64,000 nucleotides of DNA from an uncultured Ignavibacteriaceae bacterium (GTDB lineage: Bacteria; Bacteroidota; Ignavibacteria; UBA10030). The notes beneath the pieces were generated by a model, which saw nothing but the letters and a program-made list of their open reading frames with translations, was not told the DNA's origin and did no database searches. Location: NCBI GenBank assembly GCA_964651225.1, contig CAZYYD010000001.1:50811-114810 (forward strand), given 5' to 3'. Shown here one piece after another: positions 3-21,834 of the stretch (position 1 is its first letter; each line of letters starts with the position of its first letter). The translations under genes and the position numbers were made by a program.

Positions 3-1244
3 ATGAAAGGAACGCCGGGCGTGTCGGGAAAAGTATTCCAGGCGATCGGCCGTAATGGTGTGAATATCTCCGCTATCGCTCAAGGTGCTTCAGAAAGAAA
101 TATCTCGTTTGTTATTGATGAGCGGCAAAAAATATTAGCGTTGAATGTTATCCATGAAGCATTCTTTGAACCCAGGAAAAAGCTTGGTGTGATTCTGATC
201 GGTCCGGGAAATATCGGGGCTGCACTCCTTCGGCAGATCCAGCAGCAGCACTCGTTCCTGCAGTCCAATGGATTTGATGTGCGTGTCTGCGGGATTGCCA
301 ACAGCAAGCGGTTCATTCTCTCGTCGGCAGGGATAAACCTGAAACACTGGAAAGATGAACTCGGCCGGTCCCCCCAGAAAATGGATCCGGCTGAATTCCT
401 CCGGCAGCTTTCACAAATTCCGTTGACAAACGCCGTTGTGATTGATTGCACGGCAAGTTCGGAAATCGTCGACCTGTATGAAAACTTTGTCCGGTTGAAT
501 ATGCATATCATCACACCGAACAAGCGGGCTAATGTTCTGCCATGGCGACGATATAAACAACTGACGGAACTGCTGAAAAAACGGCAGAAATACTTTCTCT
601 ATGAAGCAAACGTAGGTGCAGGGCTTCCGATTATTTCCACGCTCAACGACCTCATTGCAAGCGGTGATCAGATCGTAAAGATCGAAGGAATGTTTTCCGG
701 AACGTTCAGTCATTTGTTTAATTCTTTTAACGGTACACGTCCCTTCAGTGCATTGGTGCAGGAGGCGCTGGAATTGGGGTACACTGAGCCGGATGTGCGG
801 GAGGATCTTTCGGGAGATGATGTGGCCCGCAAACTCCTTATCCTTGCGCGTCAGCTTGGATTGAAAATGGACATGAAGCAGATCAATGTTGAAAATCTTG
901 TTCCTCCAGCCCTCCGTCGTGGATCATTTTCAAAAGGCTTTTTCCAACAGTATGCAAAATATGACGAAGCGATAAAACAAAGACTGGATGCAGCCCGGGC
1001 GAAGGGATCGGTGCTCCGGTATGTAGGAGTGCTTCAAGGGAATGCCGCCGTTGCAGGCATCAAGGAAATTCCTACCAGTCATCTGTTTGCATCGACGAAG
1101 GGGAGCGATAATATTATCGCCTTTACTACGCATCGTTATGCACGCACACCGCTGGTCGTACAGGGACCCGGCGCCGGCGCCGATGTGACGGCCATGGGTG
1201 TGTTTTCCGATCTTCTCAAATTGCTCCATTATCTCCCTCATTAG
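3..1244 (+). CDS. thrA: bifunctional aspartokinase/homoserine dehydrogenase, C-terminal part (ACT region plus homoserine dehydrogenase domain); 5' end lies outside the window
   Basis: The translation resembles the ACT/regulatory region of aspartokinase followed by a homoserine dehydrogenase NAD-binding and catalytic domain (GPGNIGAALLRQ..., VQGPGAGADVTA). thrB and thrC follow directly. Confidence 0.85.
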   Translation: MKGTPGVSGKVFQAIGRNGVNISAIAQGASERNISFVIDERQKILALNVIHEAFFEPRKKLGVILIGPGNIGAALLRQIQQQHSFLQSNGFDVRVCGIANSKRFILSSAGINLKHWKDELGRSPQKMDPAEFLRQLSQIPLTNAVVIDCTASSEIVDLYENFVRLNMHIITPNKRANVLPWRRYKQLTELLKKRQKYFLYEANVGAGLPIISTLNDLIASGDQIVKIEGMFSGTFSHLFNSFNGTRPFSALVQEALELGYTEPDVREDLSGDDVARKLLILARQLGLKMDMKQINVENLVPPALRRGSFSKGFFQQYAKYDEAIKQRLDAARAKGSVLRYVGVLQGNAAVAGIKEIPTSHLFASTKGSDNIIAFTTHRYARTPLVVQGPGAGADVTAMGVFSDLLKLLHYLPH

Positions 1245-3830: not shown

Positions 3831-4313
3831 ATGATACTCAAGAAGCTTGTTGAATTCCTCGATTCGAATAATGTTCGATACACCATTCTCACACATTCAC
3901 CGGCTTTCACAGCACAGGAAATTGCCCACCAGGCACATATCTCTGGAAAGGAGATCGCAAAGACTGTCATTGTCTGGATGGACGGAGCGATGGTCATGGC
4001 TGTTCTGCCGGGATCGCACATCATAAATTTTGCTCACCTGCAGGAACACAGCGGAGCGAAAAACGTCGAACTTGCCGGCGAAACGGAATTCAAGGATCGC
4101 TTTCCTAACTGCGAAGTCGGTGCAATGCCCCCATTCGGCAACCTGTTCAATATGCCTGTCTATGTCGCCAGCGCGCTGAAAGAGGATCGGGAGATCGCTT
4201 TTAATGCGGGGAGTCACCGTGAGCTTGTGAAGATGAGCTATACAGATTATGAACGGCTCGTGAAGCCGGTAATTGCTTCCTTCACGATTCCGAGAAAAAC
4301 AACTCTGGAATAA
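3831..4313 (+). CDS. YbaK/ProX-type aminoacyl-tRNA deacylase domain protein
   Basis: About 160 aa with the family-typical GAMPPFGN motif and a conserved N-terminus (ILKKL...VRYTILTHSPAFT). The start at 3831 is preceded by GGGGGTCGGT; I rejected the longer ORF-track start. Confidence 0.65.
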   Translation: MILKKLVEFLDSNNVRYTILTHSPAFTAQEIAHQAHISGKEIAKTVIVWMDGAMVMAVLPGSHIINFAHLQEHSGAKNVELAGETEFKDRFPNCEVGAMPPFGNLFNMPVYVASALKEDREIAFNAGSHRELVKMSYTDYERLVKPVIASFTIPRKTTLE

Positions 4314-19542: not shown

Positions 19543-20031
19543 ATGGCCATTAGAATCTTTATCACCGGCGGCACTTTCGACAAAGAATATAACGAGTTGG
19601 ATGGGAAGCTGTTTTTCAAAGACACGCATTTACCGGAGATGTTAAAACTGGGGCGCTGCAAAATCCCGGTAGATGTACGCACGCTCATGCTTGTGGACAG
19701 CCTGGAGATGACGGATGCCGACCGGCAGATTATTGTCGACCATTGCCGAAAGTGCAAAGAAAATCGGATTGTTATCACCCATGGTACCGATACTATGCAG
19801 GATACTGTTCGAGTGCTTGGCAAAGCAATAAGCGGAAAAACCGTTGTCATAACCGGCGCGATGATACCGTATAAATTCGGCAGCTCCGATGGACTCTTTA
19901 ATTTAGGAAGCGCACTTGCTTTTGCGCAGACTCTTCCTCACGGAGTGTATATTGCTATGAACGGCCGCTATTTTTCGTGGGATAATGTGAAGAAGAATAA
20001 GAAATTGGGAGAGTTCGAAGAATCACGATAA
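19543..20031 (+). CDS. asparaginase N-terminal-domain-only protein
   Basis: ITGGTF and HGTDTM match the asparaginase/glutaminase N-domain signatures, but the protein is only about 160 aa. The SD GAGGAA before the 19543 ATG makes me prefer that start to 19516. Confidence 0.55.
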   Translation: MAIRIFITGGTFDKEYNELDGKLFFKDTHLPEMLKLGRCKIPVDVRTLMLVDSLEMTDADRQIIVDHCRKCKENRIVITHGTDTMQDTVRVLGKAISGKTVVITGAMIPYKFGSSDGLFNLGSALAFAQTLPHGVYIAMNGRYFSWDNVKKNKKLGEFEESR

Positions 20032-20133
20032 CTGTGTTAAAGGTTTTTCCCAAAATCGTCCACGAGTTCTTTTTACGAACGGAAACGATTTTGAGGATCT
20101 CCCACCGCTTTTAGGCGGGATAAGATCTTTAGG

Positions 20134-20170
20134 TAACGTGTGGACGCTACTGGGATCGAACCAGTGACCT
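20134..20170. repeat. 37-nt direct repeat copy 1 (tRNA-Val 3' half plus flanking TAACGTG)
   Basis: Exact match to 20462..20498, read by eye. Confidence 0.8.
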
Positions 20171-20220
20171 TCCCGTCTCGTCAGGAACGAGACGGGACGC
20201 TCTGAACCAGTCGCTCAATG
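20134..20220 (-). pseudogene. degenerate tRNA copy: a D-arm-like segment, a 10-bp perfect hairpin where the anticodon arm would be, and an intact variable/T-arm/acceptor 3' half identical to tRNA-Val
   Basis: The reverse complement reads GAGCGACTGGTTCAGAGCG-TCCCGTCTCG TTCCTGA CGAGACGGGA-AGGTC-ACTGGTTCGATCCCAGT-AGCGTCCA. No 5' acceptor strand exists upstream, so it cannot fold as a tRNA. Confidence 0.5.
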
Positions 20221-20459
20221 TATTTTCTGCTTTTTCGAGATTTGATTTCTTTTTCTCGCTTCATTGCTTCCGACCGCGTTCGAAAGGATTCGAAATACAC
20301 GACTTTCCAGGGAATTCCTCTTTTCGTATAAAGAGACCTTCCGGCGTTATGATATTTTTCTATCCGTTCTTGGAGGTCTTGAGTATGACCGGTATAATAG
20401 GAATCGAGAGAAATGCTGTAGAGAATGTATGTAGAATACGGCAAATCGATTTGAACCAT
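20181..20459 (-). CDS. GIY-YIG nuclease-family small protein (92 aa)
   Basis: GIY-YIG motifs YILYS...YYTGHT plus downstream R and E residues, at the ~90-aa size class of stand-alone GIY-YIG proteins. The last 12 codons and the stop lie inside the degenerate tRNA copy. Confidence 0.7.
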   Translation of the reverse strand: MVQIDLPYSTYILYSISLDSYYTGHTQDLQERIEKYHNAGRSLYTKRGIPWKVVYFESFRTRSEAMKREKEIKSRKSRKYIERLVQSVPSRS

Positions 20460-20461
20460 AT

Positions 20462-20498
20462 TAACGTGTGGACGCTACTGGGATCGAACCAGTGACCT
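20462..20498. repeat. 37-nt direct repeat copy 2
   Basis: Exact match to 20134..20170. Confidence 0.8.
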
Positions 20499-20543
20499 CG
20501 TGCTTGTAAGGCACGCGCTCTGAACCAGCTGAGCTAAGCGTCC
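20469..20543 (-). tRNA. tRNA-Val (anticodon TAC)
   Basis: Hand-folded cloverleaf: GGACGCT TA GCTC AGCTGGTTCA GAGC G CGTGC CTTACAA GCACG AGGTC ACTGG TTCGATC CCAGT AGCGTCC A. CCA is not encoded. Confidence 0.85.
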
Positions 20544-20856
20544 AAAATGCCTCTTTTGTAAATTTACGCAATCTTCTCTCTTATTGCAAACAGCGATTCC
20601 ATCACACATCCCAGAAAGTCAATTCACCTTTTTAAAGATTCCTCTGTTATGATCGCGTGGGTTCGGCAGGTTTGAAGCAGCGGACCAACGATGTATCGAG
20701 ATAGGATAAAATGCTCCTCCAAGGTAGCGCGTGGAAGCACCATATGGCATCACATCGACAAATATATTACAAATAAGAATATTAAGGAATTCTTGTTGGT
20801 TATTCTTGAATGAAGTGTTATGAGCTCGTAAAATATTTAGAATTCTTTGAGGATAA

Positions 20857-21834
20857 TTACTTGCGTGAATCGCTGAACGACCATGTGAATTTACCAGGCT
20901 CTAATATCTGCATCTGGTTGAGAGTTCTCGTGAGCAATTTCTCATCTAGGTGAACAGGAGATGCATCATGTTTCACAACAGAAAAATGCGGTGCTTTCCC
21001 TAGAACAGCCTCTGCGAGAAATTGGCCTCCGCCAACATGCAAATATTGACTGGAGTTTATCCCCATTTCCTGTATTGTTGAGAGAAAACTGTGGTAAGCA
21101 TAATCTTGAGAATCATCTAAAGAAGTAAACACGTACCCAAGCCCCTCGGGTCCCTGAAACAGAGCAAAAGTAAAAGGAACACTCGATAGGCTTTTTTCTT
21201 GAGAGGTTTGAACTGCTTCAAGAATATAATCGAGATTCATCCTTTCCGGCCTTAAGAATGGAAATGTCACACTGTAGGTTGTCGGAAGAGGACGCACTTC
21301 ACTATCAACAACTTCCACAAGCCTCGGATTCCTGAGAGTATATCCGTTTTCATCGAGAGGCTCGAGTGACACCTGTACAGTTTCTTCCTTTATATTAAAA
21401 AAATCACCGTAGGCCAAAAAGAATTTTTCAAGCTGCCTTGCACATTTAGCTTCTTCAAGTGTAAGCTGGCTGTGTACAATTCCCCTGACAAGATATGGCT
21501 TACTGTCCAGATTGTCGCCATGCAAGGAGCTCTTCTTCAGCATATGCTCGTTCAGATTCAAAATATCCTGCCGGTAACCCAGGGATTCCATATGCTGCCG
21601 AACCTCTGCAAACAAATCATTAAACTCTGCATGATCAGGACCATTCAACTTGGCACTGACATAAGGAACCTGGATCAAGTCCCTGTAATGCAACTCGTGG
21701 GTTGGTACTGCAGGATCGGAAATCTTCAAAAGCATATCCCGCAGGGTTTTGAGTTTAATCTTCTCCGAATCTAAAAAATTACCGGCATTGCGTTCGATAA
21801 GTCGATCCAACCGTTTTACGTATTGTTCGTTCAT
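20857..21834 (-). CDS. hypothetical protein (325 aa), no recognisable domain
   Basis: A long clean ORF in an AT-rich segment downstream of the tRNA-Val/GIY-YIG locus. I recognise no motifs. Confidence 0.5.
   Translation of the reverse strand: MNEQYVKRLDRLIERNAGNFLDSEKIKLKTLRDMLLKISDPAVPTHELHYRDLIQVPYVSAKLNGPDHAEFNDLFAEVRQHMESLGYRQDILNLNEHMLKKSSLHGDNLDSKPYLVRGIVHSQLTLEEAKCARQLEKFFLAYGDFFNIKEETVQVSLEPLDENGYTLRNPRLVEVVDSEVRPLPTTYSVTFPFLRPERMNLDYILEAVQTSQEKSLSSVPFTFALFQGPEGLGYVFTSLDDSQDYAYHSFLSTIQEMGINSSQYLHVGGGQFLAEAVLGKAPHFSVVKHDASPVHLDEKLLTRTLNQMQILEPGKFTWSFSDSRK

Follow-up and report, generated by a model that had tools for sequence, protein, structure and literature searches.

A tRNA-nested GIY-YIG nuclease cassette in an Ignavibacteriaceae genome: a candidate family of selfish elements at bacterial tRNA genes

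The systems closest to the locus considered here are the free-standing GIY-YIG homing genes such as segB of phage T4, the islands and prophages that integrate at tRNA genes, the Slx1 nucleases, the integron cassettes and the hairpin elements of the REP/RAYT and IS200/IS605 types. The locus itself lies within 64,000 nucleotides of DNA from an uncultured Ignavibacteriaceae bacterium (NCBI GenBank assembly GCA_964651225.1, contig CAZYYD010000001.1, positions 50,811 to 114,810), a stretch referred to below as the window and numbered from its first letter. It consists of an intact tRNA-Val(TAC) gene, a small GIY-YIG nuclease open reading frame (ORF) and a partial copy of the same tRNA, here called the pseudo-tRNA, in which a hairpin takes the place of one arm. 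The reading favoured here, to which a probability of roughly 0.55 can be attached, is that the locus is one unit of a widespread and apparently uncatalogued tRNA-nested selfish cassette that moves and amplifies via tRNA homology.

As in the case of segB and other free-standing GIY-YIG homing genes, the nuclease gene sits amid tRNA genes and is inherited with flanking tRNA sequence, and for SegB a nuclease-linked segmental or tandem amplification of the tRNA region has been reported (PMC2330249; PMC13096335). The present locus differs in lying on a bacterial chromosome rather than in a phage and in encoding an Slx1-like catalytic domain alone rather than an I-TevI-like protein. Each unit moreover carries a pseudo-tRNA and a conserved hairpin, neither of which is mentioned in the abstracts found on Seg genes. 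The likeness to islands and prophages that integrate at tRNA genes lies in the intact tRNA at one end, the partial direct repeat of it at the other and the retention of a functional tRNA. The cassette is set apart from them by the lack of an integrase, by its size of about 330 bp as against several kb or more, by its mirror orientation and tandem arrays, and by a partial copy that retains 5' tRNA sequence with one arm replaced by a hairpin. The anticodon-loop and T-loop sublocations found here recall the integrase site classes reportedly distinguished by Williams in 2002.

The nearest relatives of the cassette protein in sequence and fold are eukaryotic Slx1-Slx4 and prokaryotic UPF0213/YhbQ. 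Slx1 is a structure-specific nuclease that cuts branched and stem-loop DNA and, through the recombination that it stimulates where forks have stalled, maintains the number of tandem rDNA repeats, and the prokaryotic Slx1 family has been described as minimal domains with a predicted repair role and mostly vertical descent (2006 superfamily survey, PMC1564403). A term search of that survey for tRNA returned only a fusion to a TrmH-like tRNA methyltransferase, and the matched text noted no linkage to tRNA genes. The parallel is a nuclease gene within tandem, hairpin-holding tRNA-derived repeats; unlike Slx1-Slx4 the cassette protein has no partner protein and no RING domain, and a role at repeats may be suggested by analogy.

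Integron cassettes are likewise small promoter-less ORFs arranged head to tail, each with an imperfect palindrome behind it whose base is conserved and whose top varies. This likeness is one of form only, as the attC sequence motif is different; unlike in integrons, there is no IntI or other tyrosine recombinase near the window locus, and the arrays in the related loci examined start at the tRNA gene. Derivatives without an ORF, similar to miniature inverted-repeat transposable elements, exist here as they do for REP/RAYT and IS200/IS605, but the enzyme is of the GIY-YIG type and not an HUH (Y1) transposase, and because the 64-kb window holds no second hairpin of the TCCCG/CGGGA type this one does not qualify as a dispersed repeat of the REP kind. 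The hairpin lies inside a tRNA copy, whereas that of integrons and hairpin elements lies at the junction of cassette and chromosome. The cassette thus fails one defining feature each of Seg homing genes, tRNA-integrating islands, integrons and hairpin transposons. No description of the tRNA/GIY-YIG/pseudo-tRNA cassette or of the TCCCG hairpin was found in the full-text literature, a search in which subscription journals fall outside coverage, so that an earlier description is possible.

A nuclease gene between a tRNA and its partial copy

On the minus strand of the window the order is tRNA-Val(TAC), an 8-nt spacer, the 92-aa GIY-YIG ORF and the pseudo-tRNA, which ends at 20134 (Table 1). A first-pass annotation, made from the sequence alone, had described this mini-gene between tRNA-Val(TAC) and a degenerate tRNA copy, and all of its features were recovered in place. 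The tRNA-Val is the single tRNA in the entire 64 kb by both ARAGORN and Rfam. The 37-nt direct repeats that had been pointed out at the two ends of the unit are identical and extend 7 nt (CACGTTA) beyond the tRNA discriminator; none of 100 dinucleotide-preserving shuffles gave any match to them, even with up to 3 mismatches allowed. A D-arm-like stretch had also been seen at the end of the ORF. This is borne out by a 13-nt match within the last codons, which is translated as L-V-Q-S in the last helix of the protein, the final 12 codons coming from the D-arm segment of the pseudo-tRNA and the 5' arm of the hairpin. The unit is 328 nt long and the GIY-YIG gene is its sole ORF. An independent metagenome contig (L171) is 100% identical over 19966-20435, and since the identity runs across the junction of pseudo-tRNA and ORF this junction is not an assembly artefact of the window.

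The pseudo-tRNA (20134-20210) has no 5' acceptor strand and its anticodon arm is replaced, so that it lacks the cloverleaf of a functional tRNA; it was not called by ARAGORN and gave no Rfam match at E-values up to 1. Rfam searches of the locus (E-value threshold), of the whole window (gathering threshold) and of five related loci returned tRNA only, and the pseudo-tRNA with its hairpin belongs to no known RNA family. Elsewhere a hairpin-bearing pseudo-tRNA is called as a tRNA by ARAGORN and Rfam, as in L053 (tRNA-Leu(TAG), 30.4 bits, 4215-4287), and the cassettes of L033 and L040 likewise give rise to annotation errors.

The ORF matches the GIY-YIG domain of Pfam (PF01541) with E=3e-16 and 59.9 bits against a cut-off of 22.6. 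Among 25 aligned relatives the residues Y11/Y14, Y22, G24, R32, H37/N38 and E69 are invariant, and these tyrosine, glycine, arginine, histidine and glutamate positions we take to be catalytic on the strength of published I-TevI and UvrC work. A phmmer search of PDB returned the UPF0213 proteins 1zg2 (E=4e-8) and 1ywl (E=6e-5). The AlphaFold2 model (pLDDT 84) has three strands and three helices across residues 8-87, with residues 78-87 helical and the tail disordered. When this model was compared by Foldseek the order of matches was 1zg2 and 1ywl, both structures from nuclear magnetic resonance, followed by the Slx1 chains 4xm5, 7cq2 and 6seh with a probability of 1.00; the Slx1 nuclease-domain matches include complexes with branched DNA, and I-TevI gave a weak match with a probability of 0.44. 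With 92 residues, of which 8-87 are folded, and relatives of 77-92 aa, there is no DNA-binding module. From its sequence and modelled fold the protein is a bare catalytic domain of the Slx1-like/UPF0213 branch (COG2827, YhbQ-type) and a predicted nuclease.

This is a large family, with 6,799 representatives (E up to 1e-3) among proteins clustered at 50% identity. Its members closest to the window protein share 65-75% identity with it, are all metagenomic and all end in ...LVQSVPSR(S/L/Y), which is translated D-arm plus hairpin. The ratio of non-synonymous to synonymous substitution (dN/dS) among intact ORFs is 0.04-0.19, with dS above 1.2, which shows strong purifying selection. NCBIfam, PADLOC (defence) and PHROGs (phage) gave no match for the 92-aa ORF, a scan of viral contigs found no relative of the protein, and an exact-protein look-up returned no identical entry. 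Many predicted proteins of the family carry 20-45 extra N-terminal residues, and P0009 shows that such extensions can be translated tRNA (...LAQLVQSAALTRRRSLVRSQ...).

A scan with the single window protein, taking one genome per species, recovered 79 loci from Bacteroidota, Ignavibacteriota, Chlorobi, Nitrospirota, Marinimicrobia, Leptospirales, Patescibacteria, Verrucomicrobiota, Zixibacteria and a few archaea; the window's own species was not among them. An intact tRNA on the same strand ends within 100 nt 5' of the ORF at 42 of the 79 loci and starts directly 3' of it at a further 9, while 7 loci lie at contig edges and 21 have no adjoining tRNA. Thus 51 of the 72 evaluable relatives abut a same-strand tRNA, and these tRNAs represent more than 15 isotypes. 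The pseudo-tRNA is a copy of the local tRNA irrespective of isotype: at most loci with a 5' tRNA the ORF is followed by, or runs into, a partial copy of that tRNA that spans positions ~6-17 to 76 or ~35-46 to 76. The tRNA association proposed for the window therefore holds for the whole protein family and not for the window alone. The common unit comprises a GIY-YIG gene of ~80-92 aa of the Slx1-like type, a hairpin-bearing pseudo-tRNA and an intact tRNA in direct tandem, and because the intact tRNA stands in this position tRNA function is kept.

Units are frequently repeated. Tandem copies of the ORF, from two to four or more, were found at 23 loci, examples being L026 with four copies at a period of 401 nt and L012 with a period of 330 nt. 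Some of the genomes are cultured isolates (such as Niabella ginsengisoli GR10-1 and Niabella hirudinis DSM 25812, loci L039 and L051) or closed chromosomes, and these arrays are for that reason not artefacts of metagenome binning. There are also units without an ORF just 5' of the intact tRNA, at least one such unit being present at each of 23 loci, with a tandem period of 85-92 nt; every such unit opens with tRNA positions 1-26, continues with the hairpin and then the variable loop plus part of the T-arm, and closes with a short spacer. Three of these units are present in L010 (3620-3895), five in L030 (3455-3890) and three in L026 (3600-3865), and further arrays were seen in L045, L052, L058, L041, L032 and L011, the range over all these arrays being 2-5 units. 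They look like non-autonomous derivatives of the cassette. The unit spacer of L030 ends like the 3' end of the ORF in L017 (18-nt similarity), and this single resemblance between two sequences tentatively suggests that units without an ORF are internal deletions of the mirror form described next.

In this mirror form, of which L017, L021, L024, L038 and L043 are examples, tRNA positions 1-26, the hairpin, positions 44 to ~56, a spacer and the ORF precede the intact tRNA, and the stop codon of the ORF abuts tRNA position 1. The form in the window and the mirror form are one cyclic unit of hairpin, tRNA 3' part, spacer, ORF and tRNA 5' part. They differ in which tRNA part is cut short: the window form keeps its outer 3' part whole and has a truncated inner 5' part, and in the mirror form the reverse is the case. 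This complementary truncation is the expected product of a single crossover between the unit and a chromosomal tRNA gene. The suggestion in the first-pass annotation that the cassette had duplicated its target is fitted less well by these findings than a standing tandem unit of tRNA, ORF and pseudo-tRNA, and the mirror order favours recombination via tRNA homology. Both target duplication by a staggered cut and site-specific recombination at the hairpin are hard to reconcile with the absence of hybrid sites. In the Cytophagales mirror form (L017/L021/L024/L031 4241-4314) the acceptor stem of the intact tRNA-Gly(GCC) reads GCGGGAG...TTTCCCGC, which is the base motif of the hairpin in inverse order; this may be a coincidence.

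The hairpin within the tRNA copy

The TGA stop codon had been placed in the 7-nt loop of a perfect 10-bp stem, and this was confirmed at 20171-20197. The same letters also form 11 Watson-Crick pairs with a 5-nt loop (TCCCGTCTCG(T)/(A)CGAGACGGGA). Folding gave z-scores of -5.1 for the hairpin as DNA and -3.4 for the whole pseudo-tRNA as RNA. A stop codon within the loop is peculiar to the clade of the window, but the hairpin is not: in 13 of 13 loci picked irrespective of hairpins a 5'-TCCCG...CGGGA-3' element, or its CTCCG/CCCCG variant, lies within the pseudo-tRNA. In 533 kb of related loci, strict hairpins of this type reach 2.7 per kb in the first 150 nt past ORF ends, against 0.11 per kb in the remaining sequence, where almost all of them belong to the arrays without an ORF just 5' of the same tRNA. 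A test that was free of the motif gave a similar picture, the longest perfect hairpin after the ORF beginning with TCCCG at 24 of 78 loci (with TTCCG at a further 2 and CCCCG at 2) and in none of 77 control regions.

Covariation was assessed on hairpins gathered by two 5-nt anchors at fixed distance alone, which yielded 25 distinct 18-nt sequences. Two interior pairs form in all 25, with 2 and 4 pair types respectively, and their covariation score was reached by none of 500 shuffles. Within the clade of the window 8 of 10 stem pairs are invariant and one pair shows a compensatory change (U-A to C-G). Although synonymous sites in the ORF are saturated (dS > 1.2), the hairpin's 3' arm, which is non-coding, hardly varies, and this indicates that the arm is under selection. 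When the motif is translated it is read in three frames (GTC-CCG as VP, TCC-CGA as SR and GGT-CGT-CCC-GAA as GRPE), and at other loci it lies outside the ORF. It is therefore conserved as nucleic acid and not via the protein, and the C-terminal peptide motifs of the family are by-products of the nucleic-acid element.

The position of the hairpin within the tRNA copy was determined by mapping the flanks of 124 hairpins onto the neighbouring intact tRNA, and at least one flank could be placed for 103. In the window the left flank maps to tRNA position 26, and the window has the common 26|44 boundary form. Exactly positions 27-43, the whole anticodon stem-loop, are replaced by 42 of the 124 mapped hairpins, which lie in copies of tRNAs for Val, Met, Gly, Ala, Arg, Pro, Leu and Ser; other boundaries are specific to lineages (Table 1). 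The first-pass annotation had held that the hairpin derives from the anticodon arm that it replaces. The replacement stood up to the last nucleotide, but the derivation did not, because the same TCCCG/CGGGA hairpin is found at other tRNAs and at other positions in the tRNA copy: it is a conserved element of the cassette family and not a derivative of the anticodon arm. Some tRNA-Val remnants have the T-arm replaced by a TCCCG-type hairpin, for instance GTCCCGATGAATCATATTTATCGGGAC (L001 2750-2830; L004 ~2450-2545; L006 ~2030-2085), and L001 has one pseudo-tRNA in which anticodon arm and T-arm are both replaced, which suggests serial events at one locus.

Several roles for the hairpin were considered and set aside. 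It had been thought a possible terminator, but it has no T-run and a terminator scan found none. A crossover site for site-specific recombination with the anticodon arm was rejected since only complete arms or complete hairpins were seen, with no hybrid sites. A third proposal, that the hairpin represents abutted terminal inverted repeats as in the circle junction of an insertion sequence, is less parsimonious, as single integrated units hold a complete hairpin.

Occupied, empty and decayed sites

The first-pass annotation had proposed that tRNA-Val loci of related genomes be compared for presence or absence of the cassette, and syntenic loci were fetched via the asparaginase-like gene that converges on it. 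The order tRNA-Val(TAC), ORF, pseudo-tRNA is kept in the syntenic L002-L006, L086 and L168 and also in L001, which has a different neighbourhood. Occupied syntenic sites are those of the window, L002/L003, L005, L086 and L168. Clean empty sites were found in L088, L089 and L091, where the neighbour protein is 79-85% identical; these consist of tRNA-Val, its terminator and the neighbour gene, with neither ORF nor scar. The tree built from the neighbour protein mixes empty with occupied sites, and the cassette must accordingly have been gained or lost more than once. Copy number varies as well: L004 and L006 have one ORF and the near-identical L005 has at least two, at a junction that assembly with k=141 cannot have created from a shared repeat of just ~31 nt. 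It had been argued that mobility would become less plausible if close relatives had no empty-site alleles; instead, both empty sites and copy-number variation between near-identical strains are present.

Decay was also evident. In L086 (3595-3870, minus strand) there is an in-frame TAG at codon 8 and the GIY motif is lost (IICS for YILYS), with hairpin and pseudo-tRNA intact. L087 is a remnant, L166 is truncated and L168 has lost the stop codon in the loop, and across the wider family pseudogenised and truncated copies of the ORF are frequent. The T-stem of the pseudo-tRNA matches that of the local tRNA, being ACTGG/CCAGT in the window and GTAGG/CCTAC in others, and gene conversion of any origin would explain this joint variation. 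The exception is L167, in which the pseudo-tRNA has the T-stem of the window type (ACTGG/CCAGT) next to a tRNA-Val with GTAGG/CCTAC; gene conversion or import of a unit from another lineage would explain the mismatch. L167 also has a GC-rich insertion of ~70 nt in the T-loop of the pseudo-tRNA (1040-1105). In a rough tree of the protein, clades are mostly bound to one isotype and one host lineage, with occasional switches such as Arg-TCT within Val-TAC. It follows that the cassette persists for long periods and passes on mostly by vertical descent, with some loss or amplification and rare re-targeting.

Upstream of the cassette the sole obvious transcription signal is the putative promoter region of tRNA-Val, whose function as a promoter is suggested by its sequence; the element TTGCAA-N-GTAAATTT is kept 5' of tRNA-Val in empty and occupied relatives alike. 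A sigma-70 promoter and terminator scan found no convincing promoter between tRNA and ORF. The 8-nt spacer holds no Shine-Dalgarno-like sequence, and the spacing from tRNA to ATG in relatives is comparable (8-10 nt).

Downstream, a conserved module of ~100 nt (20030-20133) reaches the convergent gene. It contains a hairpin of the TCCCGC...GCGGGA type (CTTATCCCGC-loop-GCGGGAT), which in the window is degenerate, and after it a second, long hairpin TCCTCAAAATCG...CGATTTTGGGA. Counterparts in L001 (2826-2950), L005 (470-600) and L167 (1108-1230) bring the loci with the module to four including the window, and in the alignment the second stem covaries, TCCTCAAAATCG...CGATTTTGGGA in the window corresponding to TCCTTAAAACTGC...GCAGTTTTGGGA in L167. 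The module is absent from the other occupied relatives L002, L086 and L168; in L004-L006 a third tRNA-Val remnant comes after it, with a hairpin in place of the T-arm. The module may represent what is left of an earlier cassette unit, or it may be a small RNA.

The neighbouring genes are PFK, the short asparaginase-like gene, a PAS sensor and an ORF without a Pfam match, and an integrase or other recombinase was sought among them and not found. The best named relatives of the adjacent PFK are in metagenome-assembled genomes of Ignavibacteriales at 86% identity, and the relative P0122 is 94% identical. A 325-aa ORF directly 5' of the tRNA-Val promoter (20857-21834, minus strand) has no Pfam and no PADLOC match, and in relatives its position is taken by cytochrome c7-like and molybdopterin oxidoreductase genes.

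Table 1. Parts of the cassette locus in the window, and hairpin boundaries (as tRNA positions) that are specific to lineages
Feature	Position	Strand	Basis or tRNA
Putative tRNA-Val promoter region, TTTGCAA ... TAAATTTA	20559..20590	(-)	Read from sequence
Intact tRNA-Val(TAC)	20468..20543	(-)	ARAGORN; Rfam RF00005, 70.5 bits
Direct-repeat copy in intact tRNA: positions 44-76 and 7 nt of 3' flank	20462..20498	(-)	100% identical to 20134-20170
Spacer of 8 nt from tRNA 3' end to ATG	20460..20467	(-)	Read from sequence
Minimal GIY-YIG (UPF0213/Slx1-like) nuclease ORF, 92 aa	20181..20459	(-)	ORF list; Pfam PF01541
Pseudo-tRNA D-loop/D-stem segment CTGGTTCAGAGCG, tRNA positions ~14-26	20198..20210	(-)	13/13 identical to tRNA D-arm
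Cassette hairpin TCCCGTCTCG-TTCCTGA-CGAGACGGGA in place of tRNA positions 27-43, TGA stop in loop	20171..20197	(.)	Folding, family comparison
Pseudo-tRNA 3' part (variable loop, T-arm, 3' acceptor strand and 7 nt); second repeat copy	20134..20170	(-)	Repeat alignment
Conserved module of ~100 nt reaching the convergent asparaginase-like gene	20030..20133	(-)	Alignment with L001, L005, L167
Lineage-specific hairpin boundary	positions 25-34		Asn and Phe
Lineage-specific hairpin boundary	positions 50-57		Asp
Lineage-specific hairpin boundary	positions 38-55		Cys
Lineage-specific hairpin boundary	positions 35-40		Ala of Chitinophagaceae
Lineage-specific hairpin boundary	positions 22-27		Asp of Flavobacteriia

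Proposed origin and movement of the cassette

If the cassette is selfish DNA that uses tRNA homology, a crossover in the 3' tRNA homology would place ORF and pseudo-tRNA 3' of the intact tRNA, as in the window, and a crossover in the 5' homology would place pseudo-tRNA and ORF 5' of it, as in the mirror form; Campbell-type insertion on either side of the hairpin would regenerate an intact tRNA. Exchange between the direct repeats could then lead to clean deletion, giving empty sites, or to expansion, giving arrays and derivatives without an ORF. Gene conversion or homing between orthologous tRNA genes may contribute, and arms that are conserved across species could serve after horizontal transfer. 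Recombination would be started by the structure-specific nuclease, which may cut the hairpin, its cruciform, or the folded DNA of a tRNA gene that heavy transcription has opened up. Recognition of structure and not of sequence is proposed because over 15 different tRNA sequences are beyond the reach of a nuclease that has no DNA-binding domain. The ORF is probably co-transcribed from the tRNA promoter, given that no promoter of its own was detected and that it starts 8 nt after the tRNA, and the flanking tRNA-like structures may delimit its mRNA.

A stronger proposal, which we put forward tentatively and would ourselves rather doubt than assert, is that the cassettes form an integrase-free class of mobile element in which an Slx1-like nuclease and a cognate TCCCG/CGGGA hairpin use the host tRNA gene as a portable homology arm. 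Campbell insertion, excision, tandem amplification and spread between species would all belong to this proposal and share its tentative standing, as would the view of units without an ORF as non-autonomous and of part of what is called the prokaryotic Slx1/UPF0213 repair protein family as selfish DNA. The kind to which the cassette is assigned here is nuclease-associated selfish DNA at tRNA genes, and the chance that it makes up a class of its own is substantial.

Several observations weigh against a selfish, mobile cassette. In the clade of the window it looks old and largely vertical (65-75% identity, saturated synonymous sites, purifying selection), and this pattern of age and selection equally fits a domesticated gene that is useful to its host. 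All of the empty sites could be losses via the direct repeats rather than sites that were never invaded. There has been no sighting of a circular or excised form, and homology as short as 26-37 bp recombines inefficiently. The viral contigs hold no relatives that would point to a horizontal vehicle, and jumps from one tRNA to another are rare, as the protein-tree clades keep mostly to one isotype and one host lineage. The recombination model alone also leaves the conservation of the hairpin sequence unexplained.

The main rival takes up some of these points. In a domesticated host function, nuclease and hairpin/pseudo-tRNA would serve the tRNA locus, for example at the stalled forks or R-loops of a heavily transcribed gene or in the regulation or processing of the tRNA transcript; in a variant of this the pseudo-tRNA would be an RNA punctuation or stability element for the small mRNA and the arrays mere by-products. 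Such a function would agree with the strong purifying selection and with the long time for which the cassette has stayed at one tRNA in a given host lineage. It would also agree with the likely co-transcription with the tRNA of an ORF for which no promoter of its own was found, with the constant flanking of this ORF by tRNA or tRNA-like structures (down to the mirror-form stop that abuts tRNA position 1) and with the lack of phage and defence matches in viral contigs, PADLOC and PHROGs. The role of Slx1 at rDNA repeats and the fusion of a family member to a TrmH-like tRNA methyltransferase (PMC1564403) point the same way. Yet close relatives with empty sites have the same tRNA and the same promoter, the window pseudo-tRNA would be a poor substrate for RNase P or RNase Z in lacking the 5' acceptor strand, and the more than 15 isotypes show no pattern pointing to a tRNA-specific need. 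Selfish amplification typically yields arrays of identical copies and of derivatives without an ORF, as found here, and frequent pseudogenised or truncated copies are hard to square with a host function. Empty sites, decayed copies and arrays of identical units thus make domestication less likely than selfish DNA, and we regard it as an unlikely account of the locus.

More improbable still is a classical free-standing homing endonuclease, which as in T4 SegB would cut empty tRNA-Val alleles and be copied by double-strand-break repair, with the altered arm conferring immunity. The protein is a GIY-YIG superfamily member encoded beside a tRNA, as is segB (PMC2330249), the target is highly conserved and polymorphic for presence and absence, the T-arm variants of tRNA and pseudo-tRNA change together in a way that resembles co-conversion of flanks, and SegB-driven segmental amplification of tRNA regions has been reported (PMC13096335). 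The homing-like character suggested in the first-pass annotation is nonetheless made unlikely, at least in the sequence-specific sense of I-TevI or SegB, by a bare 92-aa catalytic domain, which has no DNA-binding domain to give specificity for more than 15 unrelated tRNA sequences and a fold nearer to Slx1 (probability 1.00) than to I-TevI (0.44). The intact upstream tRNA would moreover stay a target, and immunity needs only disruption of the site, whereas the hairpin sequence is conserved. PHROGs and viral contigs gave no matches.

Elements that integrate into tRNA genes classically leave an intact tRNA and a direct repeat of the tRNA 3' part (PMC9897764), and the locus could on that basis be seen as an integrase scar with attL and attR in the tRNA 3' end and the GIY-YIG gene as the last cargo of a decayed island. 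This is already contradicted by the comparative data: a compact unit of ~330 bp with no integrase nearby recurs in many phyla in tandem and mirror order, and duplication of an att site does not produce the D-arm sequence and the family hairpin of the pseudo-tRNA. Tandem tRNA duplications are common in bacteria, but a chance duplication that trapped an unrelated small ORF is already refuted by a family-wide tRNA linkage far above the expectation from the low density of tRNA genes, by a hairpin that is conserved and covaries, and by purifying selection on the protein.

If the cassette is selfish DNA nested in tRNA genes, it would give a biological context to much of a very common family of hypothetical small nucleases that has so far been represented by structural-genomics structures only. 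It would account for one origin of tRNA pseudogenes and also of mistakes in annotation, namely false tRNA calls and N-terminally extended proteins. Should the cassette turn out to have a host function instead, it would be a new accessory factor of tRNA loci. As a selfish element it would reveal a route by which DNA can colonise tRNA genes, which are essential and conserved, without an integrase and without destroying them. The change of repeat copy number driven by a structure-specific nuclease, for which Slx1 at eukaryotic rDNA has been the main object of study to date, would then have a simple bacterial system in a nuclease of 90 aa and a hairpin of 18-27 nt.

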